Shown here: piece after piece, positions 26,111-53,879 of the stretch
Layout: each line of letters starts with the position of its first letter
Position numbering within the stretch: the stretch's first letter is position 1
Assembly (NCBI GenBank): GCA_964618565.1
Contig: CAZUBA010000001.1
Coordinates: 20,998-84,997 of the forward strand
From: an uncultured Candidatus Peribacteria bacterium
GTDB lineage: Bacteria; Patescibacteriota; Gracilibacteria; BD1-5; UBA2023
Direction of reading: 5' to 3'
DNA length: 64,000 nt
Program-made: the position numbers and the translations under genes
Notes under the pieces: model-generated
Seen by the model: the letters and a program-made list of their open reading frames with translations, nothing else
The model's database searches: none
What the model was told of the DNA's origin: nothing

Positions 26111-26126
26111 TTAGTTAATTTATAAT

Positions 26127-27290: not shown

Positions 27291-27292
27291 TC

Positions 27293-29089: not shown

Positions 29090-29112
29090 TTATTTCTTAA
29101 TTAACAAAAATA

Positions 29113-30882
29113 ATGATAAATAGTGCCAACAAATATACAATAGCTCAAATTTTTTGAGATGATCCTTCTGTTAAATATACCATTCCAAAATATCAAAGAG
29201 AATATACTTGGAATAAAGATAATTGGGAAGAATTGCTTAATGATATTCAAGAAAATGAATGAAACCATTTTATCTGATCCATTATCTGTATAAATAATTG
29301 AACAGATACCCTATCAACACCAATGCTTGAATTAGTTGATTGACAGCAGAGGCTATCAACTGTTTCTTTGTTATATTGTGCAATACATAAGCTATTATCA
29401 GACAAAAATACCGAGAATGACGAAGATCTTAAAATGGAATTACATATATTAAAGCTTAAACTTATAAATAAGAAAGATTCTAAATCTAAAATGGAATTAT
29501 CACATCAAAACAATAACTTCAATGATTACAAATGAGTATTGAATGAAATCTGATTATTGAAATTTGGTGAAGAAGTTAAAAACAAGTGAAATAGAAAGAT
29601 ATTCAAGGCATTTAGATTTTTTACTGAAAAATTAAGTATCCTTTCAGTTGATGAATTGTTAGAACTTTTAGGAAAAACAAACAATACCTTACTTGTAAAA
29701 ATAGAAGTAAACTCTCATTCTGATGCATTTATGCTTTTTGAGAGTTTAAATAATAGATGAGTGCCACTTTCTGCAATTGATCTAATTAAAAACAAGCTTC
29801 TTGCAGAAGTTGAAAAAAACAAAATTATGGATATTGATGAAGCATTTTTGGACTGGAACAAGATTATCAATAATCTTGATGAATATTCTATACAAGAAAG
29901 ATATTTAAGGCAATATTACAATGCATTTAAATTTGACGAAAGAATAAAAGTAGATTGACAAAGCAAAGCAACAAAATCTAACCTTATCAAGATATACGAA
30001 ACCCTTATTAATAGAGATATAATATATATATTTAGTGAATTAATAGAAAAATCAAGTATCTACCATGATTTAATGCTTCCTAATGAGTCTGAAAATACGC
30101 TTATTAAATGATTACGAAACGAATTAATTGATTTGAATCATGTTAAGGCTGCACCTTCTTATCTGTTTTTACTATATGCTTTTTCTTTCAGTAAAGATAG
30201 AGATGCTGATTTCTATAAAAAAACGGTAAATTTGCTTGTTAAATACTTCATACGCAGGAATATTACAGATTTTCCTAATACACGCAATTTGGACCAAATA
30301 TTCATTGATTTAATACAAGAAATTAATCAAGATATTAACAGATTGAATTTTGAATACATATCTGAATATCTCACTCATCCTTCAAGATATTCTGACGATG
30401 ATAATTTTAAAAAACATCTAAATTGAGACTTATATGAAACAAATATTGATGCTACGCGTTTCATTTTGAGCAAAATAGAAGAATCAAAGAGAACAAAAGA
30501 AACTAAAACTGATTTTTGGCAAAGTGATGATAACAAGAAATTAGTATGGACCATAGAACATATATTTCCTGAATGAAAGAATATTCCGAAAAGTTGGATA
30601 GATATGATTGCAGAATGAAACAAAGAGGAGGCCGAAAGAATGCAAACAGATCTTGTTCATAAGATATGAAATCTTACTTTGACTTGATATAATCAAAACC
30701 TTTCAAACTTTGATTTTGTAAAGAAAAGAGACAGAAAAGATAACAATGATAATTTTATATGATATAAAAATAATCTTTTCTTAAACGAAGATGTTGTTAA
30801 TAAGGAATCTTGGATCAAAGAAAATATTCAAGAAAGAACGGAAAAGTTGGTAAATATTGCATTGGATATATTTAATATATAG
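29113..30882 (+). CDS. GmrSD-family type IV (modification-dependent) restriction enzyme, DUF262 + DUF1524
   Basis: 589 aa: ...IPKYQREYTWNK..., ...LVDGQQRLSTVSLL... (DUF262), and C-terminal ...WTIEHIFPEG...LVHKIGNLTLTGYNQNLSN... (HNH-like DUF1524). Confidence 0.85.
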
Positions 30883-30929
30883 ATCTTAACTTTGTTAAAG
30901 TAATTATATTAGCATTTAATAAATCTACA

Positions 30930-32147
30930 ATGGTAACACACAATCCAAAGCAAATTATAGAACAACTACAGACAATACTAAGTAACCCTTCCAAAAAAAT
31001 ATGATTTCTTTTTGGTGCCTGAATTTCAATGAAAGATATGAGCTGAAAGGATTTAATTCCAGGAGTTGATATTATGACGGATACTGTCATTAAGAAATTT
31101 ACAAAAGACCCTCAAAGATCAGCAATAGAGGTAATAAAAACTGAAATCATTTCTGATTGAAAGAAATTCAATATAGAAACTCTCTTATCAAAAATTTCTG
31201 AAAAAGAAAGAGCTGCATGAGCTGAAAAGTTGTGTTGATTAAGTAAACACGAATTAGAAATATTAAGAAAAGATATCGAAGATGATATATGCAAACAAGT
31301 GTCTATTCATGAACCAGCTTCTGAAAAAGTTAATGTTGAGACAATTAATCATAACACTTTTGCAAAATGGATTAAAAATGCAGACAGAGAATTTCCTGTT
31401 GAAATTTTTACTTTAAATTATGATTATCTTTTAGAACTATCTTTGGAAAATCAAGGAATTCCTTATTTTGATGGCTTTGTGGGTAGTTATAATGCTTTCT
31501 TTTGTCCAGAATGGATTGAAGATGGTTCTCCCGTAAGAGATTGGGTCAAATTATGGAAATTGCACTGATCACTTGGTTGGAGTCAAAATGAAAAGAAAGA
31601 TATCATAAGGACTTCCTGAGCTGCTTGAACCTCAATGATATATCCTTCATTTTTAAAATATGACCATTCAAAAAAACAGCCATATCTCAGTTATATGGAC
31701 AGATTGTCTTATTTTTTAAAGCAAGAGGATGCAGTTTTGTTTACATGCTGATATTCATTCTGAGATGAACATATTAACGAATTGATATTAACTGCTGTTT
31801 CACGTTCAAGATCTTCTAGTGTCTTCGTACTTAATTTTTGAGAATTAGAAGAAACTGACGAGTTGCCAAAAATTGCTATGAATAATACAAAAATATCTGT
31901 ATATGCAAAAAGGACAGCAGTTATAGGATGAAAATTTTGAGAATGGAAATTAGATTGAGAGCCAGATAAAAATGTTTCGTATAATGTTATCGATTTTGGA
32001 TTTGATGAAGATGCAGTAATGGAGGAAGAATGAAAAACAAATACATGGACGGGTAAATGAAATTTTTGGCTTGGTGATTTTAATAAATTCACAAATTTTT
32101 TATCCCATTTTTATTCTAAATCCAAATATATAAAAAATGATAAATAA
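30930..32147 (+). CDS. SIR2-family protein (SIR2_2 type) of a SIR2-HerA pair
   Basis: 405 aa: ...IGFLFGAGISM..., ...IFTLNYDYLLE..., ...LWKLHGSLGW..., ...LFTCGYSFGDEHIN... Confidence 0.85.
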
Positions 32148-33924
32148 TGAATCTTTTATATGAAAAGTGCGAAGTGTCACTTGAGGTGTACTTGCAATTG
32201 AATTAGATGAGAATATTCGCTCTACTCTGCCTGTAATTGATTGAATATTATACAGAGTATGACAGATAGGTTCTTTTATCAGAATTCCGTTCGGTTACGT
32301 GGATTTATTTGGTGTTGTCACTCAGGCATGATCAGATGCTATACCAGAGAAATTAGTCTGACAAGATAATGCAAAAGGTTCTCGTTGGATAAAAGCAACA
32401 TTGATTTGAGAAAAAATTGGTAGTAAATTTGAAAGATGAGTTATCCAGTTTCCAATAGCAGATGATGAGGTACATTTAGTAACAAAAGATGACCTAGAGG
32501 TTATATACTGATGATTTGATGAGAATAAATCAATTGTTGTAGGACAAATAAGCGCTTCTGAAAATTTAAGTGCAAGAATAGATATTGATCGTTTAATAAA
32601 TCGTCATTGTGCAATTCTATGATCTACATGAAGCTGAAAGTCAAATACAGTTTCGGTCTTATTAGAATCTATAGCTTCAAGAATGGACATTGATGGCAAT
32701 CCTTATAATAGCACAAGAATCTTATTAATAGATCCGCATTGAGAATATTGAGAAATTCTGAAAGAATATAGTCAAGTATTCAGAGTAGGGTCTAATTCTG
32801 AAAATGGAGAACAAGAACTGGTTATCCCATATTGGGCATTACCTTTCCAGGAATTTATAAAAAGCTTCCCTTGAAACTTAAATGAAAAACAAGAAGAATA
32901 CATTAGAGAAAAAGTTTTGCAGAAAAAAATTGCATCAGCTAAGAATTTGACGAATCCACCTGAAGAAGAAGCTATAACTGCAGATAGTCCAATACCATTC
33001 AGTATCAATCAATTATGGTTTGAATTAGATGATTTCGAAAAACAAACATATAGCGAAAGGGCTAATACCGAAACAAAAACCTTGGATGAAGAAGATTTAG
33101 GAGATGCTTCAATTTTAAAATCAAATAAATATAAGCCTGCTGGTAATGGCTGAGCTTCTCCTTTTATGAATAATTCAGCACAAGGCATCTGATCATTTTT
33201 ATATTTGATGAGAAATAGACTATTAGATCAAAGATTTAAATTTCTATATGAACTCGGTGAATTAAAGCCAGATTTAGAAGGTAAAATTAAATGAGATTTA
33301 GATACCCTTATTCAAAAATGGATTGGGACAGATAAACCAATTACAATATTAGATTTATCTAGCGTTCCATCTGAAATCATGTGATCGGTCTCATGATCAT
33401 TACTTTCAATTATTTATGAATTCTTATACTGGTGACAAAATTCTGATGTATGATGAAGAGAAACACCCATTTTATTTGTATTAGAAGAAGCTCATAATTA
33501 TTTGAAATCCGGGGAGAATTCAATTGCATCTAGAACCGTTCAAAGAATAGCAAAAGAGGGAAGAAAATATTGATCATGACTTTTGTTGGTTACCCAAAGA
33601 CCATCTGAGTTAGATGAAACAGTCCTGAGTCAATGTTGATCAGTAATTGCACTAAGAATGACTAATTCAAATGATAGAGGACATATAAAAAGTGCAGTTG
33701 AAGATTCTTTGTCAGACTTAGTTGATTTATTACCAAGCCTAAGGACTGGAGAGTGATTAATAATGGGCGAGTGTGTTAAATTACCAATGCGTACAAAATT
33801 CAATAAAGCAAAGGAATCTAAAAGTACAGATCCTCTTGTATCTGAAAAATGGAAAAAAGAATTGCCAAAAGCCGAAAACTATAAGAAAGTAGTTGATCAT
33901 TGGCGAAATAATAAGTTTTCTTAA
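32137..33924 (+). CDS. herA: HerA-like ATPase (DUF87) of a SIR2-HerA pair
   Basis: 595 aa. Walker A HCAILGSTGSGKSNTV (all three Gly of GSTGSGK are TGA), Walker B ILFVLEEAHNY, ...RKYGSGLLLVTQRPSEL... The ATG overlaps the SIR2 3' end by 11 nt. Confidence 0.9.
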
Positions 33925-38080: not shown

Positions 38081-40756
38081 ATGACAATCACATATTTATT
38101 ATTAAGCATTTTTGCTTTATCAACGCCGGTTATCCTATATTTTCTTTCAGGGTTTTTATCTTCAAATGACGATAGGGAATATTCGATTATTGAAGTTAAG
38201 CCAAGCCCTATGGATAATCAGCAGATACTATATTCTAAAATGGTTTTGTTTTTGACTCATCTTAAGTCTGTTGCTGAATTAGATGAACCATTTAACATTA
38301 TTTTTGATATTACCAATAATGATAGTATATGATTAAGGTATTTTAGACTTATTGTACCTGAGTCATACCAAAACTTTATCATAACGCTACTACAAAGCGA
38401 TTTTCCTGATTTCAATTGTAGTGTCTCAGAGACTATTAAGGAATGTGATTATTTTTTAAGGTACAATTGATTTATTGTATTCAGAACTAATACAAATAAG
38501 CCTCTTATTAAAAATACAAATATATTTTCTGAAGAATATATTCTTGAAAATCTCAAAACTCTCATAAATTCTGTAGACAAGGGGAGTTTTCAGATTTTAT
38601 TGGAATTTCCGGATGAAATAAATCAGATGATATGAAAAGAGGAATTGGATTCCATAAAAATAGATTCTAACACAATGGAAACAAATTTAAATTATGTCAA
38701 AGACTTAAAGATATCATTTAGATTTCTAAGTTTTGAAACAGATTTTTGCCCTACAGCGGTACCTTCTACCGTATGAGGGATACTAAATTTGAAAGGTAGG
38801 TCAAACATAATATCCAAGGAATTCAGATGATGAAAATATATTACCAGATCGTGATGAATTAAGAATTTTATAATTGATTTATTTTACAGATATATGCATG
38901 GAATTGAACCAAGACTTCAATATTTCTCGAGTGCGGATGCATGTTATTTTTCTGCTAGGGAACTAGCAACCCTATATTCGTTTATATATTGTGATAAAAT
39001 TGATTGATTGCCATATACATTCGGTAATCCCTGAAAAGTCCTTAATAAACAAAAAGAGCTTGAGGAAATCTATGGTGACCATAAACAATTTACCAGGATA
39101 GCACAAATAGCTCATCCAAATTATTGAGAAGAATGGTTTAAGTTAGATATAGAAACAAAAAGAAGACATGTTTATTTTCTTGGTAGAACATGATCTGGTA
39201 AATCGACATGCTTGATTGAAATGATGAAGGATGATATTAAGAATGGTAGATGATTTTGTCTCTTGGATCCACATGGTGATCTTGCAGACAAAATACTCGA
39301 TTCTATTTCATTTGAACGAGCTGAAGATGTTATATATATCGACCCTTCCCATCCATGCTGAAGAGTAGGACTTTGAATTTTTTCTTTTTTACGAGAAATC
39401 CGTAATAGACATTTTAAGTCGAGAAGCACGACTCCAAGCTTACAGGAATTTCGCAGTTACTCTAGTGTACTTGTATCAATGATGGTAACCGCACTTAAAA
39501 GTATAAGTATTGGAGGCAAGGAACAATGGTGACCTAGGCTAGATATGTTGATTAAGTCAATATGATCTGAGCTTTTAAAATATGAGTGCTCTGAGGTATT
39601 GGATATTTCAGCGTACCTTAATTCTGAGGAATTTCGAAAAAGTGTATTGGCAAATATTGATGATCATTTGTTAAAAGAAGAATTGGATTCACTCAATCAA
39701 AAATCTAGTAGAGTTACTGATGAGTGGTTTCAGCCATTAAAAAACCGTCTTGGAATTTTCAATGTTGCATACTTTAGAAATATTTTTTCAGGAACTCCAA
39801 AATTTAGTCTGAAAGAGGCAATGGATTCAAATAAAATATTAATATTCAGGCTTTGATCAGGATTATTGTCTGAGGAGGGGAATTTATTGGGTTCAATAAT
39901 GGTTTCCTTGATTTTTCATCTTTCAATGAGCAATGCTTGAATATGAGAAGATGAGCGTCATGATTTTACTATTTATGCTGATGAATGTCAGAGGTTTGTA
40001 ACGGACGAATTCTCAAAAATATTGTCAGAGGCTAGAAAGTATCGTTTATCATTGGTTTTAGCTAATCAATCTCTATCTCAGTTGAGTGTGAAGAATCCTG
40101 AAACTTTGAATGCTATTTTGGGGAATGTTTGAACTATGGTCTCTTTTGCAGTTTGACCAGAGGATGCTTTAATAATAAGTAAACGTTTCAGGCTTAATTC
40201 CGAAAAATTGGCAAATTTAACTCCACATAAAGCCTATGTAAGTTGTGAACCCTATTCAGATGAGTCATTTTTGGTACAGACATCCGTGGGGGCTTGCGAT
40301 GAGACAGCTAAATATCCTGGAAGGCTAAAAGTAGTGGCTTCAAGTAGTGAAAAATATGGTCTTGAATGTTTTACATCAATAAAGACATACACTGATTGTA
40401 TACTTAAAAGCTCATTATTTTATTTTCTAAAGTCTCATAATACCTTTACTAGAGCTGATTGCAAAAAAAGGTGGAGTTATCATGATAAATCAATCGATAA
40501 ACTTCTTGGTATATTGGATGAACAGTGAATAATCAAAAAACAGACAGAGGATTTATATGGTGCCAATATTGATACTATTATTCTTCTGGAATCTGAATTA
40601 AGAAAAGGGGATATCATTCAATTTGAATATGTGGTAGAGGAGTGTAACGAAAAAGATCCCATTATACTTAGGATGCATTTTGATAAATATGGTTCACTTC
40701 CTTCTTTTTGATATCGTAAAGATGAATTTGAACACGATCTTTTGGAGAATGGATAA
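38081..40756 (+). CDS. membrane-anchored VirD4/TraD/TraG-like (type IV coupling protein-like) P-loop ATPase
   Basis: 891 aa. N-terminal TM MTITYLLLSIFALSTPVILYFLSGFL. Walker A HVYFLGRTGSGKSTCL, ...CLLDPHGDL..., Walker B FTIYADECQRF, ...ARKYRLSLVLANQSLSQL... Three track ORFs (38081, 39599, 40208) lie in the same frame. Confidence 0.8.
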
Positions 40757-40832: not shown

Positions 40833-40912
40833 TTTACTGATAACAAAAACAACTCTACCCACCTATCAAACATCTCAATAAGTGTGTGGGGAAATTCGTC
40901 TCAAGGCTGCCA
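40833..40912. repeat. junction repeat A (ends in tRNA-Trp 3'-end copy GGCTGCCA)
   Basis: TTTACTGATAACAAAAACAACTCTACCCACCTATCAAACATCTCAATAAGTGTGTGGGGAAATTCGTCTCAAGGCTGCCA. Homologous to repeats B and C. Its 5' part also matches repeat E. Confidence 0.6.
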
Positions 40913-40918
40913 TGAAAA

Positions 40919-40969
40919 ATCAAATAATCCTCCTGCGAAAGCGGGGGGATTATTGATTATATTTTTTCC
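40919..40969 (+). terminator. long GAAA-loop hairpin + T-tract (duplicated at 45649..45716)
   Basis: ATCAAATAATCCTCCTGC gaaa GCGGGGGGATTATTGAT followed by TATATTTTTT. Confidence 0.5.
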
Positions 40970-41127
40970 ATCACAAAAACAACTTGCTTTTTATTGAATA
41001 AAAGCTAATCTTACCTTAAATAATGTTAAAGAAGAAATCTTACATTATTTTTTCTTTAACTTTTCAGTATTTTTCTTTGTTTTAATAAATATTCTCTTTT
41101 AGGATTATCTTTTAATAAATTAAGATT

Positions 41128-44040
41128 ATGTCTAATGCAATACTAAGTAAATTTAATAAATATCATCTTATTAAGGCTACATTGATCATGTTATCATTTA
41201 CGGTCTTTTTTGTTTGAGATGCTTTCGCAGATACAAATGAAAATTGTATTGTCACTATGAATACTAGGTGTACATTCTCAGATTGATGATATCTTGATAT
41301 AACAGGTGTAGAGACAAACTCAACCTTTGTAAGATATATAAGCAAAACAGGTGAAACAATTGGTCAGACACAACTAAACCCATTTGGTTGAGCCTGTATG
41401 TTACCTACAAGATATGGGACAAGATTGCTACCCTCAAGTCATTCTTTTACATCAATACTAGATGGCAAAAATACAATAAACATTCAAGCGGATGTTGAAG
41501 TTTATTATTATTCTTTTGCTAACCTCTGGACATGTCAAAGGCAATTCTCCATACCTTGGTCATATCAGACCAGTCCAGTGTATACCTTCACAGAAAAATC
41601 CTCCTTATCGCTTTTATCATCTGATCCAATTGATTCTGCAACTCAAGTTCCTATTGACTCTCCGATAACTCTTGATTTTTCTGAATGAATAGATTCGACT
41701 TCGATTAAAGATAATATATCGCTTACTTTAAATGGAAATCAGATTGAATATTGATTTTCTCAAAGTGATGACAAAAAAGGAATCAATATCAAATTGACTT
41801 CTTGAAGGTTCGCCCAGAATAAAATTTACGCTCTGACTATCTGAAAAAACTTAAAAGACATATCTTGAAATACTTTGTGAACTGATAAAGTTATCAGCTT
41901 TACAACTGAAGTGATGCCATATAGTCTTTCTCAACAGATCAATAGTCCACAAATGGAAGAAGAACCCCATGATGTTTATCTATGAGAGAAGATATGAAAG
42001 TTTCAATCAGGATCAGGGATAATCCTGAGCGCCATAGTTGATAATTCTTTTTGAAAAAATCTAAATCTTGATTTTGAGGTATATAAATTATGAGAATCAT
42101 TACCTATATATAAAAGATCAACAGAGGTGAATCTTTGAATCTGAACAGTGGTAGTTGATTTTTTGTGAGCTTGAGATTATTATTGGAGAGTAAGGACTTC
42201 TGACGATTCATGAAATTCAAGTGATTGGGCAGATTTCTGAATGAACTTATTCTGAGAATCTGATTTTTCATATTTTTATTGATTTGAACCTTATCCTTAT
42301 GGATACAGGTTTCCTAATGCAAGTGTTGCGGATTGAGTATTGAATTGAATGTGACTTAGCTCTATTGTAAGATGAATCCCACCAAATTCGTTTTTGATTA
42401 ATCAGCCCACAATAATTGATTGAAACAAATGGAATTTATTTAATAATGCATTTGATACATCAACTTTAAAAAATGATGATAGAAAAATGATTGATGCATT
42501 TGAAAGCCTTTGACTTAATACAGATGAGCAATTTCAATGATGAAATTGCTATGGAATGGCTATGTCTCCTGCTATGCAGTTTACTCATTCCGGTTTTATT
42601 CAGACAAATTATTCTAAATTTTCAAATCAAATATGAAATTGAACTATTTGGGATAATATAATTCCACTTGATGTAGATTGAAAAGATGATTGGAATAATT
42701 ATGATGGTAACAAGACCTTAGAAATTATCTTGTCATTTCAGCTTTCTCAAAGTAGCGTACATATTCAAAAAGCAATTCATAATGGTACAAAAAGTCCAGA
42801 TAAAATATTAACAGAATTAAAAAACAATTCTAATAATACTTATGCATTACTTTTTTGGTGAAAAGATAAAAATAATGATGATGTATGACATGCTGTAATC
42901 CCATATAAAGTAGAATGAAATAGGATTTATGTATGGGATAACAATTTTCAATATCCATTTAGGGAAATAAATAATACTGAAATTTATTCATATAATCAAT
43001 ATATAGAGTTATACACAGGAAGTGATTGAAAAATTAAGTGGAAAGATAAAACATATGAATGGAATGAATTTACAGAAATGTCATTAGTAAATTTAGACGA
43101 TATATATAACAATTGATATAAATCAGTGCCAATGTGATTTAATTGAAATGGCACATCATATACGTTATCCTGAAGCTCTAGTATCTATATTTCAGATTCT
43201 CTGTGAAGAGTTTCTTGATTTACCAGCTCGGGTGTAATAGAAGATATTCCATGAGTAGATGTCATAGTTCCTTTGAATGTGACACTTAGCTGAGCAACTA
43301 AAAGTAATCTAAAACAGATATATATACCGGAAAAAATAGATTGACTGACTATTAAAGTCAGTTGAATAAAAGAAGAGAATTATGATCTGAAGATTGCATG
43401 ATGAGATTATTACACTAACATATCTTGAGTAAACACTCTAACAGGACAAATAGATATATTCACGACAACAAATTCATGAATATTTATAGATTTCGATGAT
43501 TCTAAAACCTGAACATACACTTTACTGACAGATAATTTCCAAGACACTCTTACATGAACAGTATTTTCACCTTGAATTGAATCTATAATTCAACCACAGA
43601 AATATATATTTGATTGGAATAAAGTGATGCAAGGTTCTACTAATGCTATATCTTATCAAATTGATATCGATAACGATTGAATATACGATCTGACTAGCAA
43701 TTTTTCACCAGTCCCTAAATCTCTAGATGAAAAATGATCAATATCAGGTTATGTGAAATGAGATACAAATGCGTCTATGGCATGATGGAAGGTATTCATA
43801 GACAAGAACGATAACTGAAAACTGGAAGAATATTCTGAGATTTTTACGACTACAGATAATAAATGATATTATAGATTCGATAATCTAGAGAAATGAAACT
43901 ACAATATAGCTGAAATTCCACATCAAAACTGGAATTTAATCAAACCAACCAATTATAAATATAATCTTTATCTGAATAACTGACAGAATGTCATTAACCT
44001 TGATTTTGTGAATACTTTTACAAAATGAAAAGGCAAATAA
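41128..44040 (+). CDS. large secreted protein L1: signal/TM, Ig-like (SbsA/Big_5-like) segment, papain-like Cys-protease signature, C-terminal SdrD-B-like domain
   Basis: 970 aa: MSNAILSKFNKYHLIKATLIMLSFTVFFVGDAFA..., ...LSSDPIDSATQVPIDSPITLDFSEGID..., ...EQFQGGNCYGMAMSPAMQF...GHAVIPYKVEGNRIYVWDNN..., ...TTDNKGYYRFDNLEKGNYNIAEIPHQNWN... No TAA/TAG in frame. Confidence 0.8.
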
Positions 44041-44058
44041 CTTTAACATAAAAATACT

Positions 44059-44562
44059 ATGAAAATATATATACAAGTATTCATATGAATATTAACACTG
44101 GTCATGTTAGTGCTTTTATGAAAATATTGATATGATTATTACAGATACGAAAGAAATGTTACTATAGAAGAACAAAATAAAAGGAAGATTGATGAGTATA
44201 ATTTTGAACAATTGACAAAAGTAAAAATAATATTAAAAGATATTAAAAGATCAGATAAAAAATTCCAATCTTTAAAGGAATTCAATCATATATATAATGC
44301 AGATATAAACCCAATTAAAAATTGTTATTATATAAAAAATTATGAAGACAACAATAGGGTATTGTATACTTTTTGATTTAAACTAGAATCGAAAAAATAT
44401 AAAGATAAATACTGACTAATTGGCAAGTACGGGACAGTATATTATGTCTATCCAAAATATGATTTGCCTTATAGCAAAGTTTGTTTCTGAACAAAGAAAT
44501 CTTGTACTGACCTTGCATATGACCATTTTGACACCATTATATCAAACCCTTGCGAGGATTAG
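44059..44562 (+). CDS. small membrane-anchored Cys-rich protein S1 (partner of L1)
   Basis: 167 aa. TM MKIYIQVFIGILTLVMLVLLG, conserved ...IDEYNFEQL...PIKNCYY...YPKYDLPYSKVCFGTKKSCTD...ISNPCED*. Paralogs at 48814, 49932 and 51167. Confidence 0.7.
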
Positions 44563-44651
44563 GATATTCTTCTTTTGATTTGATTAAACAATTCCACCCA
44601 CCTATCAAACATATCCATTAGTGTGTGAGAAAAATCATCTCAAGGCTGCCA
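44563..44651. repeat. junction repeat B (ends in GGCTGCCA)
   Basis: ...TTGATTAAACAATTCCACCCACCTATCAAACATATCCATTAGTGTGTGAGAAAAATCATCTCAAGGCTGCCA, immediately after the S1 stop. Confidence 0.6.
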
Positions 44652-44665
44652 TTGACATTTAATAA

Positions 44666-44697
44666 AAATCAGTATATTACTAATACTGATTTTTTTA
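44666..44697 (+). terminator. Rho-independent terminator
   Basis: AATCAGTAT attacta ATACTGATT followed by TTTTTT. Confidence 0.55.
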
Positions 44698-44711
44698 TTT
44701 ATCAAAGCACT

Positions 44712-45539
44712 ATGATGCAATCACGAGTTCCAGATGAGGTTGATTATAACGATGCTCTTGTAAAGATTAGCAACCATTTCAATACTGATGAACGAGTGTT
44801 CTCAATATTTTGATCAGGGTGGAAAGAACAAAAAAGACGCATTCCATTCAGTGATATAGACTTATTTATTATTGAAAGGAATAGCATTCTTCCTTCCTTC
44901 GAAACTGTAGTAGCATTTTGAAAATTACTTGAAGATATTCATCCAAATGTTCCAGTTCAAATACATTGGACAAGTGAGCCAATTCTAAGAAGTCCTCTTT
45001 GCCCTGAAAAACCTTTTCTCGAAGAGACAAAACAATCAAAAGAATGAGAGTTTGCATCGTATTGATATGCAACATATCTTGATAGCATAGCTCAAAATCG
45101 ACAATTCAAAAATGACGACATTTCGATGATGTCTCACTATATTCGGAAAATCGTAAATCAAACTATTCGGCTGGAATCAGTGAAACAAAGCGGTGATCAT
45201 GCAGATATTGTCCGAGTTTTCTGAGCCTATAGGAAAATTTTTGGACTTCTTTCTTTGATTGTACGAATTAAAAATGGATCATCACCATTTTCAAATAGGA
45301 AAGCTGATATTATAGAATCTGCACAAGAAATTATAGGTTCAAACATTATTATAAATGCTGACTTACTTCTTACTTTAGATCAGCCAGATTCCTACAAACT
45401 CCTTGAAATGTTCCATTCTGAAGAACTGGAAAAAGTAGTCATATATTTTAGTCAATTGTATGTCGAGCTTGTTAAAATTTTACAAAGTATACTTTCATTA
45501 CCAGTGAAAGTTAGAGTAGAAGAAGTGTTATCATTTTAA
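44712..45539 (+). CDS. nucleotidyltransferase-domain protein (Pol-beta/MNT/ANT-like)
   Basis: 275 aa: ...VFSIFGSGWKEQKRRIPFSDIDLFII... (GS...DxD NTase motif), then a helical C-terminal half. The track ORF 44625 start lies inside repeat B and is not used. Confidence 0.75.
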
Positions 45540-45632
45540 AACTACTGTGATACTTTTTCCAAACCCTCCAGATCAAACTCCTGAAGCGCTTTTAGAAACT
45601 TCAGTATAAGCAAAGTTTCACCCACAACTCTC

Positions 45633-45644
45633 TGGGGCTGCCAA
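45633..45644. repeat. junction repeat D: 12-nt copy of the tRNA-Trp 3' end (TGGGGCTGCCAA)
   Basis: Identical to 8588..8599 (acceptor 3' strand, discriminator, CCA, plus 1 nt). No matching 5' acceptor strand upstream, so it is not a tRNA. Confidence 0.5.
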
Positions 45645-45648
45645 TATA

Positions 45649-45716
45649 AAATCAAATAATCCTCCTGCGCACCCAAAGGAAGTACTCCTGGGGTAAAAGC
45701 GGGGGGATTATTGATT
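45649..45716 (+). terminator. copy of the 40919 hairpin with a GC-rich insertion in the loop
   Basis: AATCAAATAATCCTCCTGC gcacccaaaggaagtactcctggggtaaaa GCGGGGGGATTATTGATT followed by TATATTTTT. Confidence 0.45.
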
Positions 45717-45887
45717 TATATTTTTCCCCACTACAAAAATAACTTGCTTTTAAAGGAATATAGGCTAATGTTGCTTTAAATAATGTTCAAGAATTGATTC
45801 TTACATTATTTTTCTTTAACTTTTCAATATTTTTCTTTGATTTAAAAAGTATTCTGTTTCAGGATTATCTTTTAATAAATTAAGATT

Positions 45888-48794
45888 ATGTCTAATGCAA
45901 TACTAAGTAAATTCAATAAATATCATTTTATTAAGACCATTTTGATTCTATTATCATTTATGGTCTTTTTTGTTTGAGACGTGTTTGCAGGCGCAAACGA
46001 GAATTGCATCGTCACAATGAATACCAGATGTACATTCTCTGATTGATGATATCTTGATATAACGGGTGTGGAGATAAACTCAACCTTTGTAAGATATATA
46101 AGCAAGACCGGGGAAACACTTTGACTGACTCAGCTCAACCCCTTCGGCTGAGCTTGCATGCTACCAACAAGATATGGAACAAGATTATTGCCTACAAGCC
46201 GTTCATATGCATCAATGGTTGATGGTAAGACAGCAATAAACATCCAGGCAGATGTAGAAGTATATTATTACTCCTTTGCAAATCTCTGGACATGCCAAAG
46301 GCAATTCTCTATACCTTGGTCATATCAGATAAGCCCTGTATATACTTTTATTGAAAAATCATCACTTTCCCTTTTATCTTCAGATCCATCAGATTCCGCT
46401 GTCAAATTTCCGATAACCTCTCCAATAACTCTTAATTTTTCTGAATGAATAGATTCGGCGACAATTAAAGATAATATCACACTTATTACAAATGGAATTC
46501 AAATAGAATATTGATTTTCCCAAAGTGAAGATAAAAAAGAAATATATATTAAGACAACTTCTTGAGCTTTCGGTCAAAATAAAACCTACACTCTGACTAT
46601 TTGAAAAGATTTAAAAGATATATCTTGAAATACTTTCTGATCTGATAAAGTCATCAGTTTCACAACTGAATTGATGTTAAATAACCTTTCTCAAAAAATA
46701 CTGAGCCCACACATGGAGGAAGAAGACCCTCGGGAAGTGCATCTATGAGAAAAAATTTGAAAATATCAATCCGGTTCAGGAATAATATTGAGCGCAAACA
46801 TAAATAATAATCCTTGAGACAAGCTAGATTTTGAAGTATACAAATTATGAAATTTTACACCTATATATACAAAATCTACAGAGGTGAATCTTTGAATCTG
46901 AACAGTGGTAGTTGATTTTTTGTGAGCTTGAGATTATTCTTGGAGGGTAAGGACTTCTGACGATTCATGAAATTCAAGTGATTGGACAGATTTCTGAATG
47001 AGCTTCTTCTGAGAATCTGATTTCTCTTATTTTGATTGATTTGAGCCTTATCCTTATGGTTTTAAGTTTTATAATAGAAGTGTTGCTGATTGAGTATTGG
47101 ATTGAAATGGATTTAGATCGAGAGTTATATGATTTCCGTCTAATCCAATTAAGATATTTGAACCGGCAATAATTGATTGAAATAAATGGACTATATTCAA
47201 TAATGCATTTGATACATCAGAGTTAAAAAAAGACGAGAGGAAAATGATAAATGCATTTAATGGTCTTTGACTTAATTCAGATGAACTATTTCAATGATGA
47301 AATTGTTATGGTATGGCCGTATCTCCTGCTATGCAATTTACACATTCTGGTTTTATACAATCAAATTACCCAAAATTTTCTAGTCAAATTTGAAATTGAA
47401 CTATTTGGGATAATATAAGTCCACTTAGTTTAGACTGAAAAGATCATTGGAATAATTATGATGGCAATAAAATTTTAGAAACTATTTTATCTTTCCAGCT
47501 TTCTCAATATAGTACTCATATACACGAAGCAATGTCTAATGGTATAAAAATACCAGAGGATATAATAGCTCAACTGAAAAAAAATTTAAAAAATAATTAT
47601 GTTTTAATCTTAAATTGAAAAGATGAAAATAATAAAGATATATGACATGCTGTAATTCCTTATAAGGTAGAATGAAATAGAATATATATATGGGATAATA
47701 ACATTCAATATCCCTATAGAGAAATGGAGTCTGATAAAAATTACTCTAACAATCAGTTTATTGAAATTGATAGCAATTGAAAATGGAGGGATCAATTCTA
47801 TTTGGATTATACTAAGTATCGTTTTGATAAAATGAAATTGATAAATTTAGATGCTATATATAATAGCTGAATCAAATCTGCACCAATATGATTTAGCTGA
47901 AGTGGTGCGTCATATACTCTTTCTTGAAGTTCTGATATTTATATCTCTGATTCGTTATGAAGAATTTCATGATTTACAAGCTCGGGGATTTTAGAGGAGA
48001 TTCCATGAATAGATGTGATAGTCCCTTTAAATGTTACTCTTAGTTGAACGGTAAAAAATAATCTGAAACAGATATACATCCCAGAAAAAATAGATTGATT
48101 AACAATAGGAATAAATTGAAAAACAGGAGAGAATTACGATCTAATGATAGCATGATGAAATTATTATGTAAGAATATCATGAGTAGAATCTGGCTCAGGA
48201 CAAACTGATATATATAATGTTTCAAGAGATAATATTTTAATAGATTTTGACAATAAAAAAATATGAGCATATGATTTGCTAGTAGATGATTTTCTAAATG
48301 ATTGAGCAGGATCGATATATAGATGAGAAATGAAATCAGAAACAAATTTACAAGGATATTATATAGATTGGAAAAAGGTAAAAGAAAATGATAAGGAATC
48401 GGTTAAGTACATGTTTGATACAGATTGAGATTGAACTTTTGATATAGAAAGTTATTTTAATGTTATACCAGATAAAGAAAATATAAAATGAAGCATTTCC
48501 TGATATGTCAAATGAGATACAAGCGCTTCTATGGCTTGATGGAAGGTTTTTATTGACAAAAACTGAGACGGTAAATTGCAAGAAAATTCTGAGACTTTTG
48601 CAGTCACGGACAATAGATGATACTATATGTTTGCAAATCTGGACAGATGAAACTATAAAATATTAGAAATTCCTCATCAAAACTGGAATCTGATTAAACC
48701 GACTAATAGTATATTTAATTTATATTTGAATAAATGACAGAATTTTATAAATCTTAATTTTGAAAATTCTTTTACAAAGCGAAAAGGTAAATAA
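45888..48794 (+). CDS. large secreted protein L2 (paralog of L1)
   Basis: 968 aa with the same N-terminus (MSNAILSKFNKYHFIKTILILLSFMVFFVGDVFA...), the same GGNCYGMAVSPAMQF...GHAVIPYKVEGNRIYIWDNN signature and the same EIPHQNWNLIKP end. The region after the protease-like domain diverges from L1. Confidence 0.8.
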
Positions 48795-48813
48795 TAATCT
48801 TAATCCAAGGGTC

Positions 48814-49299
48814 ATGAAAAAAAATAAACAGATAATGACATGAGTGTTTCTATTGTCTTTACTGATATTGGTATGAAGATATTGATATGATTATTTTAGG
48901 TATGAAAGGAATGTGACTTCAGAAGAGTATTCAAAAAGGAAGATAGACGAATATAATTTCGAGCAACTGGAAAAGGTGAAAGACTTATTGAAAAATCTGA
49001 AAAGATCTGATAAGGAATTCCTATCATTGAGTGAGTTCAACAAATTATATAATGCTGAAATAAAGCCTATAAAAAATTGCTATTATGTGAAAAATTATGC
49101 AAGTAGCAACAGAGTATTATATAATTTCTGATTCAAGCTAGAATCAGATAAATATAAGGCCAAGTTATGAACTGAAAATTATATATATCCTAAATATGAC
49201 TTGCCTCGTAGTGAAATTTGTATGTGAACAAAGAGCTCTTGCACTGATGCAGCATATAATTATTTTGTTAATACGATATCCAAACCCTGTAAGGATTAG
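48814..49299 (+). CDS. small membrane-anchored Cys-rich protein S2
   Basis: 161 aa: MKKNKQIMTGVFLLSLLILVG...IDEYNFEQLEKVK...PIKNCYYV...YPKYDLPRSEICMGTKSSCTD...ISKPCKD*. Confidence 0.7.
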
Positions 49300-49305
49300 C
49301 TTGAT

Positions 49306-49908
49306 AATATCTACAATTTTAAAGACACTTTCATTTCTCCCAATATATGACTGATAGTACTTTTTGATAATTCTAAAATCTGAACCTATGATTTGCTAAC
49401 GGCTAATTTCCAAGATACTCTAACCTGAACACTATTCCTTTCTTGAATCACATCTTTATCCCAACCACAGAAATATGTATATGATTGGTCTAAAATTAAA
49501 CATGACACAAATGACTCAATATCCTACTAATTAGATACTGATAACGATTGATCATACAATCAGACAAGCATTTTTTCAGCAGTTCCAAAATCCATAAATG
49601 AAAAATGATCAATATCATGATATGTAAAATGAAATACTAATTCATCAATGGCTTGATGGAAAGTTTTCTTAGACTTAAATTGAGATTGAATATTACAAGA
49701 AAATAAAGAGTCTTTCACTACAACAGATAAAAATTGAAACTACACATTCGATAATCTGGAGAAATGAAATTATGTAATTATTGAAATTCCTCATCAGAAC
49801 TGGAATCAAATAAAACCCAAGAAGAAGTACGACTTTTATTTGAATAGCTGACAAAATGTTCTAAATTTCGATCTTGAGAATATTTTCATTAAATGAAAAC
49901 AGAAGTAG
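49306..49908 (+). pseudogene. orphan 3' fragment of an L-family gene (5'-truncated, in-frame TAA at 49528..49530)
   Basis: Starts with no start codon 7 nt after the S2 stop. Encodes ...LFDNSKIGTYDLLTANFQDTLTG...SISY*LDTDNDG...TTDKNGNYTFDNLEKGNYVIIEIPHQNWNQIKP..., collinear with the L1 C-terminus. Confidence 0.65.
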
Positions 49909-49931
49909 ATTACTTTTTAAACCACTAATTT

Positions 49932-50714
49932 ATGATTATTTTGAATTTCTTAAAATCAAATATGCTCAAGAAAATAGTTGCATATTCAGTCATATTAATT
50001 TTATGATTATGTATTATTGGTATCGGATATAGTTTATTATTTGAACAAGATGAAATTGCCATAGATAGATATAATTTTGAGCAGTTAGAGAAAGTGAAGC
50101 CAATACTTGAAAAAATCTCCAAAACAGCTGATAGATTCTACTCTTTGGATGAGTTCAATAAAAAATTTGGCAAAGATATTATACCAAAAAAAAATTGCTA
50201 TTATGTAACCACAGACTTTAATTGAAATTATCCTTTTATCTTCTGATTTCAGCTTGAATCTTTATTATACAAATTTTTATATTTTTGAAAATATTATGCA
50301 TATCCTAAATATGATATGCCTTATAAAAATTTTTGCATATGATGACCTTGATGATGATGCATAGATTGATCAAGACAAATATTCGAAACAACAATATCTC
50401 ACCAATGTCGTTGAGGAATATCATGACAAGTATATAATGATAGGAATAAAAATTGAATAATTGATATTTGAGAAGGAATAATCACAGATATATTTGTATA
50501 TATTGATGACCCAAATATATCTTATAATATAACATTGGTTGATTGAAACGGCTTCTATCAATTTGCAGATATCGATCCATTGATAACTCATAAAATATGA
50601 ATTAAATATCCTGAAAAATACGAAATTACTTCACCTAAAAAATGATATTATGATATCACTCTCAATAGTAGTCCATTTCAATATTGATTAAACTTCCTAA
50701 TCTCTAAAAAGTAA
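49932..50714 (+). CDS. S-family protein S3 fused to a C-terminal SdrD-B-like domain
   Basis: 260 aa. S-type core (...IDRYNFEQLEKVK...KKNCYYV...YPKYDMPYKNFCIGG...ISHQC) runs on without a stop into ...GGISGQVYNDRNKNGIIDIGEGIITDIFVYIDD...VDGNGFYQFADI... An alternative start is the internal ATG (MLKKIVAYS). Confidence 0.6.
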
Positions 50715-51150
50715 ATGCAATACTATCTTGATCTGAGAAAATACTCGGGAACAATTCTACCTCCTTAGAAACTCTCATAATTACCATCACTGAATATATG
50801 ATCTTTCATCCAACTTCTCATCATTTCCAATATCTCAAAATGAGAAGTGATACATCATATTCTTAAAATGGGATACAAATGCTTCTATGACAGAATGGAA
50901 GGTATTTATTGATAAAAATAATGATTGAAAATTGGAAGAAAACTTAGAACCGTTCCAAGTTACAGATGATAAATGATATTACAGATTCGACAATCTGGAG
51001 AAATGAAGCTATATTATAGCTGAGGTGCCACATCAGAATTGGAATTCAATTAAGCCAAATAACAGTAAATATAATTTTTATCTTAATAACTGACAAAGTG
51101 TTATAAATCTCAATTTCGAGAATAATTTCATTAAGTGAAAAAGCAAGTAA
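50715..51150 (+). pseudogene. second orphan 3' fragment of an L-family gene (frame-disrupted, no usable start)
   Basis: Encodes ...GIYDLSSNFSSFPISQNEKGYIIFLKWDTNASMTEWKVFIDKNNDGKLEE...DDKGYYRFDNLEKGSYIIAEVPHQNWNSIKP...KSK*. The upstream part is shifted or deleted relative to L1. Confidence 0.55.
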
Positions 51151-51166
51151 TAATAATTCAAAATCT

Positions 51167-51646
51167 ATGAAAAAATATATACAAGTAATCGCATGAATAT
51201 TAGCACTAATTGTATTGGTTTTAATATGAAAATATTGATACGATTATTATAGATTCGAAAGAAATGTGACCGCAGAAGAACAAGTTAAGAGGAAGATTGA
51301 TGAATATAATTTTGAACAATTAATTAAAGCTAAGCAAATATTATCTAATATTTGAAAAGATGATAAAAAGTTTTTTACACTTAAGGAATTTAATCAAAAA
51401 TATAATGCTAATATAAAACCTATAAAAAATTGTTATTATGTAAGCAATAGCAATTGAGGTAAGCCATATATATTTTGATTTCAATTAGAGTCTGATAAAT
51501 ATAAATCCATATATTGAACGGGATATTATGCTTATCCAAAATATGACCTACCTTATAGTAAAATTTGTTATTGAACCAAGGCATCTTGCCATGATTTTAC
51601 ATATAATATCTACGAACATACTATATCCAATCCATGCGAAGATTAG
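51167..51646 (+). CDS. small membrane-anchored Cys-rich protein S4
   Basis: 159 aa: MKKYIQVIAGILALIVLVLIG...IDEYNFEQLIKAK...PIKNCYYV...YPKYDLPYSKICYGTKASCHD...ISNPCED*. Confidence 0.7.
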
Positions 51647-51733
51647 TGTATTCGTCTTTGATCTGATTAAACAATTCCACCCACCCATCAAACATGCCCA
51701 TTAGTGTTGAGAAAAAACACTTTAAGGCTGCCA
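51647..51733. repeat. junction repeat C (ends in GGCTGCCAAATA, 12-nt match to the tRNA end plus flank)
   Basis: ...CTGATTAAACAATTCCACCCACCCATCAAACATGCCCATTAGTGTTGAGAAAAAACACTTTAAGGCTGCCA, immediately after the S4 stop. Collinear with repeat B. Confidence 0.6.
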
Positions 51734-51750
51734 AATATAATTAACAAGAA

Positions 51751-51773
51751 ATTCTCCTTCGGGAGGATTTTTG
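51751..51773 (+). terminator. short terminator-like hairpin
   Basis: TTCTCC ttcg GGAGGA followed by TTTTT. Confidence 0.4.
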
Positions 51774-51903: not shown

Positions 51904-52431
51904 TTAACTTATAATATCATTGGCTTTAGTGGAAGTATCATTTTTTACAGAATTTACTCATTCATTGAAATATCTTGAAGGATTTACAATCACTCATTTA
52001 TATATTCATTTTTCTGGATTAATTTCATCAGTCAGGCTATTGAGTCAATCCACTATAGTGTAAAATTTTCCTTCATATTCAAAATATCAATCGAAAGATG
52101 GTATTTGCCTTCAATTTTCCAGTATTTCAGCAAAATGTTTAGTGGGTTTGAAATTCTCTTTAAGTAGCTTTATATCAAAATCTCTATCTTTCTGTGAGGT
52201 GTATTCTAGAATGAAATTATTTCATCAGATATCATAAACTTTCACATATTCGTTGAAGTCTATTTTTTCAGGATCGAAATTAACAAGATTCACTTTTCAT
52301 CTCAACATGTTTTTTATATCATGAGCAAAAACTCAGGTAATTTTCATTTCATGAAAAACTATATCATCTGCCTGATAAGATATAGGGGTGGTTTCTGTAA
52401 GTCATCTTGTGTCTTCTTTCAATATTGTCAT
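51904..52431 (-). CDS. hypothetical protein
   Basis: 175 aa, MTILKEDTRGLTETTPISYQ... The ATG lies 2 nt after the kinase-like gene stop. Confidence 0.55.
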
Positions 52432-52433
52432 TG

Positions 52434-53879
52434 CTACTTTTTAGGAAATAATTTTATTCTCCCGAAATCTATTATATAGATATTTCATTTTTTATCTAGC
52501 ATAATGTTTCAAGGATGTAAATCTCAATGATATAGTCATTGTTTACCTAAATAATCAAAAGCTTTACTCAAATCAGAGCCTCGTCATAACAGTTCTCAAA
52601 GTCTACCTCATGAATAGTCTTCAAGTATCATACTAAGATGATCATCTTTTACATTGAATGCACTCTTTAGATATTCTCTTACTTCCATGTCCGTTACATT
52701 ATTGAGCCTCAAGAATTCCTTTGGATCAAGTTGTTTCTTGTAATAATCAAGAAGAGTTTTTGTATATAAACTTTGTCAGTCTACCTTTTCCATAATGAAG
52801 CATCAATCATCTTTTCATTTATATACATGAGGAGTTCTGATGTTGTCAGGAATTATTCATTCTTCCTTTCCTTGTAATATTTTAGAAGAAAATAAATTAT
52901 GATTCTCAAATTCCTTAACTATATCATCAACTTTTCAGTCTTTTGCTATTTTCAATACTAGTTTCTTATTAGTAGGATGTTTTAGGATGATTGCCTGAGT
53001 TCACTCTCAAACTACATCACTCATTTTGAGATCTTCTCATAAAACTTCTTTGTACTTGTTGAGAAAAGGATATCTTGAATAGACAATTTCACTTTCCTTT
53101 AGTGCTTCCTTTCAGCTTCTAAGCACCACAGATCATCTTTCATTCAAGACAGGCCTCAGCATAATCTTTCATTTATTGCTTATTTTTATCTTATTCAAAG
53201 CCTTTCATAAACTGGATAGGATTTGACTCGACGATAATCATTTGGAAAGCATTCACTGAGGAATTAATGATAGTGCTCTCAGTCATTCTATTCATACAGT
53301 CTTTAAAATCAATATAAGTTTTTTTCAAGCTGAAACGCTTCATTTAAGGAATTCTTCAGCTGTTATATTGATTTCTTCTCAGAATTTAAAGGTAGATGGT
53401 AATCATTTTCAAATTTCCTTCGCTGTTCAGAATGAAGTTAATATTAATATTTTTGCAATATTATCGTTTCAGATAAATTCTTCCAGTTTAGACATTCAAT
53501 TATCCAGTTTTCCTTCAAAATACCTTGAAATATCTCAAGGTCATTTAGTCTCATTAAGGGAATTTATTATCCGTTTTTCATAATAATCTCTCAATGCAGA
53601 AGTATTGGTTCTTGTTTCATCAGTAACTCAATCTTTCAACTCTTTGAGCCTGTGTTCTATTGCATTTCTATCATGATCAACATGATGCAGATAGGACTTT
53701 ACCTTATCAACTAAGGTATTGAATTCTTGAGGCGGGAGTTTTCTTATGCTTTCTTGGTTCAAATAATTAATAGCCATATTCTGTATAGCTTTTCCCCCAT
53801 TTCATCTAATGTCTTTTCAGGTTCTTTCAACAACATCGGTTTTCGATATTTCAGAGTGCCAACTATCGTTATATCACAT
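52434..53879 (-). CDS. protein-kinase-like fold protein with a long N-terminal extension
   Basis: C-terminal half: ...GEGTQAIILKHPTNKKLVLKIAKD... (Gly loop + Lys), ...LYHGDLHPGNIMLDKKGNIYIIDFG... (catalytic loop + DFG). Start is ambiguous: ATG at 53879 (longest ORF) or 53777. Confidence 0.7.

Follow-up and report, generated by a model that had tools for sequence, protein, structure and literature searches.

Within a 64,000-nt stretch of DNA (hereafter the window) from an uncultured Candidatus Peribacteria bacterium of the Gracilibacteria (contig CAZUBA010000001.1 of assembly GCA_964618565.1, positions 20,998 to 84,997, forward strand) we find two neighbouring pairs of genes, L1-S1 and L2-S2, in which a large gene for a predicted secreted multidomain protein (L) is followed immediately by a small gene for a predicted membrane-anchored protein (S). 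Two further S genes each stand behind a 5'-truncated 3' fragment of an L gene (dL3 and dL4, termed stubs below). Sequence comparison with related genomes indicates that L-S is a Gracilibacteria-specific two-gene module which is laid out like a polymorphic toxin/immunity locus. We tentatively read it as a putative polymorphic effector with a membrane-anchored protector or inhibitor and with orphan cassettes, an interpretation to which we would give not quite an even chance. Gracilibacteria are uncultivated, recoded candidate phyla radiation (CPR) bacteria whose interactions with hosts and competitors are largely unknown, and a lineage-wide module of two undescribed families provides them with concrete, testable effector candidates; we infer that L may act in the host interaction of an episymbiont or predator. 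No description of the L-S module was found in the searchable literature, and the "hypervariable gene" of a published Gracilibacterium genome (PMC6851277) proved to encode a PTD-repeat protein unrelated to L or S.

The L and S genes become visible only if UGA is taken to code for an amino acid, and translation table 11, under which the longest open reading frame (ORF) of the region has only 106 aa, was therefore rejected. With a sense reading of UGA, ORFs that reach 100 aa or more span 94.8 kb compared to 13.9 kb under table 11, the longest having 974 codons. Code 25 (UGA = Gly) was adopted because homologues translated at NCBI with this code have Gly at sites where code-4 database translations have Trp, and all protein work was done on our own code-25 translations. 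Related loci were collected by scanning an S profile over one genome per GTDB species; the 42 loci obtained were translated with code 25, and hidden Markov models (HMMs) for five L segments and for S were mapped onto each of them.

The 42 loci contain 80 S genes, 24 after a full-length L, 34 after an L stub and 9 after another S, with 7 more at a contig edge and 6 seemingly alone, so that a full L or an L 3' stub immediately precedes 58 of about 73 assessable S genes. Two of the six in fact adjoin an L, which leaves three to four truly solitary S genes (clearly so in loci L008, L024 and L035), and seen from the other side S is found downstream of 27 of the 28 full-length L genes of the related loci and the window. 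The strict L-S pairing that the initial annotation had noticed in the window is thus lineage-wide, and S genes without L neighbours are rare. Arrays of the form L-S-(L 3' stub-S)n occur in many independent genomes (among them L002, L003, L009, L016, L018, L025, L026, L028 and L032). Stub-plus-S units were seen in no fewer than 15 independent loci, as many as five of them in one array (L028); orphan units of a 3' fragment and its partner, likened initially to those of polymorphic toxin loci, are therefore recurrent. At least eight full-length L genes lack the C-terminal transthyretin-like domain described below and still have S downstream, and arrays in these loci tend to S-S tandems. Apart from L and S, none of the window genes recurs across the 42 loci as a conserved neighbour, and no linked secretion system was found. 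In L028 (6873-9707) two stub-plus-S units are exactly duplicated with a period of ~1675 nt and identical HMM scores, which represents a recent tandem expansion. A full, UGA-recoded L-S pair also lies at the end of a 286-kb contig labelled as a Hyphomicrobiaceae metagenome-assembled genome (MAG; L010, JAEUMD010000001.1); the contig belongs to an alphaproteobacterial bin and is GC-rich downstream of S, and it is possibly chimeric or mis-binned.

A direct contact with a classical polymorphic toxin array was found in one genome (L017, positions 1-10348 of JAQTXG010000001.1, Gracilibacteria MAG STC_129). Here a YD-repeat/Rhs gene (RHS_repeat, 1.3e-20) is accompanied by a small transmembrane (TM) protein and two orphan fragments with an Rhs core (Rhs_assc_core, 80.8 and 76.5 bits). 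In the last orphan ORF (8681-9877) the Rhs core is joined in frame, over a span of ~100 aa, to an L 3' fragment with OmpL47-like and SdrD_B-like domains, and the ORF is followed by an S gene (9893-10348). Since such a cassette is spliced into this array, L 3'-S cassettes can evidently join Rhs-type orphan arrays.

Gene order and coordinates of the array in the window (Table 1) agree with the initial annotation, including its statement that an S gene follows every L copy or fragment within 15-25 nt: the gaps are 18 nt (L1-S1), 19 nt (L2-S2), 23 nt (dL3-S3) and 16 nt (dL4-S4). L1-S1 and L2-S2 represent a tandem duplication with common flanks. The repeats named initially exist as well, namely a 67-nt repeat, located after S1, after S4 and also before L1, and a hairpin with the adjoining upstream region of the two L genes. 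Copies of the 67-nt repeat match within the window only; as a candidate conserved RNA or recombination site it was discarded, having no Rfam match and being absent from other loci, and the likeness of its GGCTGCCA end to the 3' end of a tRNA is short and due to chance. Because terminator-like hairpins stand before L1, after S1 and after S4 and none was found by a scan of the window inside the L2 to S4 block, where the next one stands only behind S4, L1-S1 looks like one operon and L2-S2-dL3-S3-dL4-S4 like a second one. A promoter scan of the window (101 hits vs 86.5 expected) was uninformative in this AT-rich DNA.

Table 1. The L-S array, its flanking elements and the upstream defence island (positions refer to the window)
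Feature	Position	Strand	Remarks
Type III restriction-modification (R-M) methylase	18452-20254		defence island
OLD-family AAA_15/TOPRIM nuclease	20272-22014		defence island
Type III R-M res helicase	22026-24362		defence island
DUF2779 protein	27293-29089		defence island
GmrSD	29113-30882		defence island
SIR2-like gene with HerA ATPase pair	30930-33924		defence island
67-nt repeat, copy 1	40847-40913	+	3'-flank element of the L-S unit, at the left edge of the array
GC-rich terminator-like hairpin and conserved L1 upstream region	40917-41033	+	hairpin at 40923-40954; block recurs before L2
L1	41128-44040	+	970 aa; code 25
S1	44059-44562	+	167 aa; predicted N-terminal TM anchor, helical stalk and small Cys-containing outward-facing domain
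67-nt repeat, copy 2, and AT-rich terminator-like hairpin	44586-44694	+	repeat at 44586-44652, hairpin at 44664-44694
Nucleotidyltransferase (NTase)-like ORF	44712-45539	+	275 aa; between both L-S units, not part of the module
Second copy of hairpin and upstream region	45649-45793	+	before L2; 26-nt insertion interrupts the hairpin
L2	45888-48794	+	968 aa; 70% identical to L1, same domain order
S2	48814-49299	+	161 aa
dL3	49324-49908	+	L 3' fragment, truncated on its 5' side; homology with L1 aa 776-970; ATG-ORF 49648-49908
S3	49932-50714	+	260 aa; S domain of different subtype and C-terminal SdrD_B
dL4	50794-51150	+	L 3' fragment, truncated on its 5' side; homology with L1 aa 852-970; ORF 50887-51150
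S4	51167-51646	+	159 aa
67-nt repeat, copy 3, and terminator-like hairpin	51669-51772	+	repeat at 51669-51735, hairpin at 51747-51772; right end of the L2 to S4 transcription unit

The stubs had been described initially as decayed copies, a view which the comparison with L1 does not bear out. dL3, which extends beyond its ATG-ORF and follows immediately on the stop codon of S2, in frame with it, is 63.6% identical to the corresponding part of L1 with a single in-frame stop, and dL4 is 70.6% identical with an open frame and a degenerate 5' end. In the C-terminal domains of both, the proportion of synonymous differences to L1 (pS) is saturated (0.78-0.83) while that of nonsynonymous differences (pN) is as low as 0.14-0.16; the stubs are truncated rather than decayed. 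Across loci they never include the papain-like domain, start 0-60 nt past the preceding S stop and, although the DNA has a GC content of ~30%, almost always form open frames of 80-270 codons. In other loci a terminator-like hairpin (minimum free energy (MFE) of -8 kcal/mol or lower) marks about half of the junctions between an S gene and a stub (15 of 32), and an apparent conserved peptide at the stub start ("RKIIFLYF") turned out to be the translated terminator hairpin after S. The S2 stop (TAG) and dL3 lie in one frame and are parted by a single stop (49297-49324), and two S-to-stub junctions of L003 (10352-10354 and 11546-11548) are likewise single in-frame stops, an arrangement that may be due to chance or may permit read-through into S-stub fusions resembling S3. 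The tail of dL3 is of the L1 type (53% vs 31% identity to L2), yet it is paired with S3, the S most unlike S1, indicating that tail type and S type reassort.

L1 is composed of a signal peptide, a Cys-containing N-domain, a Big_5 domain (aa 159-260), an FN3-like segment (41926-42282), a papain-like core (42283-43107), a beta-rich middle region (43108-43719), a transthyretin-like C-terminal domain (43726-44028) and a Lys-rich tail. Secretion of L, as claimed initially, is supported by its N-terminus, which on inspection is of Sec type (basic n-region, hydrophobic core of 14 residues, A-F-A↓D site); those of the homologues are similar. The Ig-like segment could be assigned to Big_5 (PF13205) well above the Pfam cutoff of 23.6 bits (56.9 bits in L1, 62.7 bits in L2). 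The SdrD-B-like domain proposed for the C-terminus is less certain: CarboxypepD_reg just passes in L1 (32.7 bits, cutoff 32.3) and stays below the cutoff in L2 (26.1 bits), and SdrD_B falls short in both (20.4 and 18.4 bits, cutoff 29.7). Besides Big_5, this marginal CarboxypepD_reg/SdrD_B-type domain is all that Pfam recovers from L1 and L2; in other members of the family the SdrD_B-like domain is recognised, passing the cutoff in the L017 stub (36.5 bits) and appearing as precomputed PF17210 hits in the homologues P0004 and P0014.

It had further been stated that L1 and L2 diverge strongly after the protease-like domain, which is overstated for two proteins of 70% overall identity. Identity is lowest (~30-50%) around aa 600-650 and 750-850; the stretch of ~100 aa just before the C-terminal domain, the most polymorphic part of L, is 39% identical, and the last 100 aa are ~76% identical. 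The ratio of nonsynonymous to synonymous divergence (dN/dS) ranges from 0.04 to 0.5 at a dS mostly above 0.5, with synonymous sites largely saturated, and the two genes are old paralogues, both under purifying selection. Dating of the duplications by dS had to be abandoned, as this saturation leaves their relative ages not resolvable. A word-indexed database search with L returned ~15 homologues, all named ones from Gracilibacteria; they share the C-terminal 62-73% of L and differ in their N-termini (LamG, RCC1, beta-helix), where L variation is greatest. No LPXTG motif, TM segment or other anchor was found in the L sequence. A short Lys-rich tail (...KGKGK, ...KGGKN, ...NLKHK) closes almost every L protein, with or without the transthyretin-like domain; in the window these tails lie at 44011-44037 (L1) and 48765-48791 (L2), and the tail may be a surface-retention or sorting feature.

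The papain-like signature noticed initially in L is a Cys-His-Asp order that proved to be invariant across the family, in 16 of 16 database homologues and in all 25 L proteins derived from the loci. In L1 these residues are Cys474 (42547-42549), His588 (42889-42891) and Asp604 (42937-42939), and the invariant motifs of the core comprise an FEPYPY block, the Cys in NCYG, the His in GHAV and the Asp in WDNN. AlphaFold2 (AF2) models were built on homologues annotated at NCBI with code 25, using a substring of P0004 for the papain-like region and P0038 for S. In the P0004 model (predicted local distance difference test score (pLDDT) 86.8), from which order and placement were read, Cys90 starts a helix (90-99), His219 lies within a strand (209-227) and Asp235 follows directly on the next one (230-234), a placement which, as modelled, corresponds to the papain-fold arrangement. 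The best Foldseek match of the core in the PDB is a CHAP-type Gsp amidase (E=1.4e-2, probability 0.5-0.92, TM-score 0.16-0.25), Pfam's "Papain fold toxin 1" matches L at E=0.28 only, and the viral fold library BFVD held nothing useful for it; sequence and profile searches of Pfam, NCBIfam and PDB for a named family were all empty. A profile of the core, searched against 1.84 billion representatives, retrieved 112 proteins. The distant relatives are exported multidomain proteins with NosD/beta-helix, SH3_3, dockerin, PKD, LRR or Big_2 modules, and they keep PNPWGY..N, GGNCYGMA, GHAxVPY and YDPN motifs together with the following beta-rich region. Judging from these matches, the core represents an undescribed extracellular Cys-His-Asp domain family which is not confined to Gracilibacteria.

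S consists of an N-terminal hydrophobic anchor and a domain of ~115 aa with the invariant motifs D-x-Y-N-F, N-C-Y, P-x-Y and a C-terminal P-C. The blocks seen initially in the window copies are kept family-wide (IDxYNFxQL, PIKNCYY, YPKYD), while of the four Cys thought to be conserved two are invariant and the other two are found only in most members. TM anchor and invariant Cys pair point to an outward-facing domain. The N-termini fall into three subtypes, and in one of them the hydrophobic segment might be a signal that is cleaved off and not an anchor. The family comprises 102 clusters by single-sequence search and at least 245 by profile search, and all named members are from Gracilibacteria. 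Neither Pfam nor NCBIfam has a domain for the S domain itself, in family members or in the S proteins of the window. In the AF2 model of P0038 (pLDDT 90) a long helix (residues 3-56), corresponding to TM segment and stalk, precedes a small alpha/beta domain, for which Foldseek found no relative in the PDB (best E-value 6). S thus has no recognisable inhibitor fold, be it cystatin-like or another known one, and no known immunity fold, and the protease/inhibitor likeness suggested initially finds no structural counterpart. S3 is ~40% identical to S1, has its nearest relative in another genome (L035) and carries a C-terminal extension with an SdrD_B domain (34.6 bits, cutoff 29.7; 2.4e-8); such S-SdrD_B fusions are also found in P0112 and in one S of L015 (2013-2714).

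Within arrays the two partners differ in their pattern of variation. Mean identity of S is 51% within an array vs 45% between genomes, and that of the L C-terminal domain 73% vs 43%; 32 of 45 S copies, and 14 of 31 copies of the L C-terminal domain, are closer to a copy from another genome than to any array-mate. Some stubs carry a foreign C-terminal type, with 27% identity to the L of their own locus and 69% to L1 of the window (L018), or 55% to their own L and 86% to the L of L007 (L026), which argues for an exchange of 3' modules among lineages. Covariation of L and S does not follow adjacency. The L C-terminal domain does not covary with the S next to it (Mantel r=-0.12, p=0.89), so that cognate pairing of the two by a mirror-tree approach gave no signal, and among the 25 full-length L-S pairs only the distant papain domain does (r=0.33, p=0.0002). 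Values for the FN3-like segment (r=0.17) and the first part of the middle region (r=0.18) are not significant (p ~0.05-0.06), and the polymorphic tail of the middle region shows none (r=0.00, p=0.49). This points to S being tied to the catalytic domain of L rather than to its adjacent C-terminus, a modest signal which may partly reflect vertical descent.

How far does the resemblance to known toxin/immunity systems go? In classic polymorphic toxins, e.g. of contact-dependent growth inhibition (CDI; CdiA-CT/CdiI) or the Rhs type (Rhs-CT/RhsI), the C-terminal toxin domain varies and is set off by a motif such as VENN or PxxxxDPxGL. Like these, L is a large exported multidomain protein with a small partner immediately 3' on the same strand, and downstream arrays of 5'-truncated 3' fragments each have their own partner gene; array partners are highly diverged, some cassettes are of a type foreign to the main gene, and the locus lies in a variable, defence-rich region, with a cassette inside a real Rhs array in one genome. 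Unlike them, L has no recognisable C-terminal toxin domain or conserved demarcation motif, its extreme C-terminus being a conserved beta-sandwich, and its candidate active part is the papain-like domain, which is conserved, lies centrally and is absent from the cassettes throughout. The partners are all members of the S family, where those systems use many unrelated immunity families, S is predicted to be membrane-anchored and outward-facing, and export of L is by a Sec signal only, without type V, VI or VII secretion system (T5SS, T6SS, T7SS) signature. Of the likeness drawn initially, the adjacent partner and the orphan cassettes hold, while a variable C-terminal toxin and covariation of the partner with it do not, and L-S is not filed here as a CDI/Rhs-type member. 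It extends the orphan-cassette plan to a system with a central, conserved candidate active domain instead of a C-terminal variable one.

For the core itself the closest comparison is with CHAP, NlpC/P60 and other papain-fold enzymes such as the Gsp amidase of E. coli (PDB 3a2y/2io7), with which it shares the Cys...His...Asp order and, in the model, the Cys at a helix start and His and Asp on adjacent strands. Its distant relatives stand alongside SH3_3 and further modules that bind walls or ligands, a combination often seen in cell-wall hydrolases. Similarity to the Gsp amidase is marginal, and unlike papain-fold enzymes the domain has ~270 residues with large helical inserts and its own invariant FEPYPYG..F.N block. 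The C-terminal ~100 aa of most L proteins and the extension of S3 resemble the SdrD B-repeat/CarboxypepD_reg stalks of Gram-positive surface proteins in their DxDxDG-type, Ca-binding-like motifs and their position at the cell-proximal end of an exported protein, but the L domain is single-copy, is not followed by LPXTG and is optional in the family (that of L2 being below the Pfam cutoff).

Under the interpretation that we favour, L would be an exported hydrolase (peptidase or amidase) that acts on the envelope or surface of another cell, with its target specificity provided by the variable N-terminal domains. S, facing outward at the producer's own membrane, would block or restrain the catalytic domain of L and thus serve as immunity protein or inhibitor-like protector. 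The stub-plus-S units would be relics of repeated recombinational replacement of the L 3' end together with S, as for CDI/Rhs orphan cassettes, and the extra S genes left over might widen protection against the L variants of relatives. In favour of this scenario we count the L-S linkage, the invariant triad, purifying selection, the diversity of S and its covariation with the papain domain, the foreign-type stubs, the cassette in the Rhs array and the nearby defence island; diverged S copies within arrays would, by analogy, be behaviour typical of immunity repertoires. Several points weigh against it. The papain assignment is based on motif order and model geometry, with a Foldseek E of ~1e-2, a TM-score of 0.16-0.25 and no sequence model; S matches no known inhibitor or immunity fold in the PDB; and the modest covariation of S with the papain domain could be caused by shared vertical descent. 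The conserved beta-sandwich occupies the very end of L, where classic toxins vary, and is absent from several L proteins. Some S subtypes look as if cleaved and secreted, a poor fit for immunity in cells without an outer membrane, and homologues of the papain core outside Gracilibacteria seem to manage without S. It is also conceivable, if distinctly unlikely, that L and S form allele-specific pairs (S versus the catalytic domain) whose stub-plus-S cassettes are recombined into an expression site, which would amount to an undescribed recognition or conflict system. If true, a cell could change which relatives or hosts to attack, tolerate or attach to, and an uncultivated episymbiotic lineage would possess in this locus a determinant of self/non-self or host range that can be switched.

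Other functions of the pair have to be considered. S might be the cargo, with the papain-like domain of L processing or presenting anchored S precursors, as one peptidase serves several bacteriocin-like precursors. The several diverged S genes per L, the covariation of S with the papain domain, the invariant ID-YNF block at the boundary of stalk and domain, and a new fold with conserved Cys pairs as in many secreted effectors would all suit this role. We nevertheless consider it rather unlikely: in one S subtype the hydrophobic segment runs into ID-YNF with a possible signal-peptidase site, so that L would be unneeded for release, the block is modelled inside a long continuous helix packed on the domain and not in an exposed linker, and no leader-like motif or transporter gene is linked in the 42 loci. 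A purely structural role, in which S is a membrane dock that holds L at the surface via the transthyretin-like C-terminal domain, would leave the many highly diverged S copies per L unexplained, as well as the S-S tandems without any L stub; the L proteins without a C-terminal domain that still have S behind them and the absent covariation of the two (see above) also speak against it. The idea draws on the fact that L has no anchor of its own and ends in a beta-sandwich and Lys-rich tail, whereas S has a TM helix and a stalk of ~30 residues, on the C-terminal domain standing beside an S gene in every kept stub, and on the natural S-SdrD_B fusions, which could represent a fused complex. On balance such docking seems quite unlikely to us.

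The arrays themselves could be explained by an expression site with silent cassettes, the stub-plus-S units recombining via L 3' homology (sometimes via the hairpin after S) and swapping the C-terminal part of L together with S, for surface variation that evades recognition by host or phage or switches host range. In Neisseria pilE/pilS, Borrelia vlsE and Anaplasma msp2, a full-length promoter-bearing gene is followed by promoterless partial copies with shared flanking homology, and the stubs are likewise 5'-truncated, seemingly promoterless and right behind the preceding S, often after a terminator-like hairpin. The higher identity of L 3' stubs within arrays is consistent with gene conversion, the stretch before the C-terminal domain is the most polymorphic one and of L1 type in dL3, and the exact duplicates in L028 document recent array dynamics. 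Unlike in those systems, each cassette has a complete second gene, and the cassettes never include the variable N-terminal domains of L, which are probably its most exposed part. S itself is membrane-proximal. The cassettes of the window, parted from L2-S2 by no terminator, are probably co-transcribed and not silent, no recombinase or conserved recombination site is linked, and L and S copies are anciently diverged with saturated synonymous sites, so exchange must be infrequent and no sign of ongoing conversion is seen in these data. Together this renders silent cassettes very unlikely. Plain tandem duplication with deletion, in which most of L3 and L4 was lost and the leftovers have no role, agrees with the shared flanks of L1-S1 and L2-S2, the in-frame stop of dL3 and the degenerate 5' end of dL4. 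It is highly improbable, however, given that the stub-plus-S layout recurs in independent loci, that junctions lie consistently just past an S stop, that stubs are almost always open frames in DNA of ~30% GC, that pN of 0.14-0.20 against saturated pS shows constraint at the protein level through most of stub history, and that S copies are intact and constrained. That the arrays arose by recombination would agree with every one of the functional readings, including that of effector and protector.

The L-S locus lies downstream of a defence island (18452-33924; Table 1). Further upstream, a large serine recombinase (8542-10299, minus strand; Resolvase, Zn_ribbon_recom) overlaps the 3' end of a tRNA-Trp(CCA) gene (8524-8598), a site which is probably the integration end of a genomic island; a second att-like copy of the tRNA-Trp end was not found in the window. 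Directly upstream of L1 lies the gene of an 891-aa protein (38081-40756) that has a TM segment at its N-terminus and P-loop ATPase signatures of the TraG/TrwB/HerA type. This protein was rejected as a conserved partner of L-S, since homologues recur in only two of the 42 loci, in one of them (L008) beside a solitary S and a prepilin-like gene. The NTase-like ORF, which sits between the 67-nt repeat and the hairpin upstream of L2, has a weak signature of nucleotidyltransferases of the Pol-beta type (GSG...DIDLF; 20.9 bits, under the cutoff) and a homologue in none of the 42 loci. Beyond the array, a 175-aa ORF without hits in the domain search (51904-52431) stands after a 481-aa protein (52434-53879, minus strand), in which the last ~50 residues correspond to the catalytic-loop region in the families protein kinase/ABC1/APH (Pkinase 32.0 bits, cutoff 31.7).

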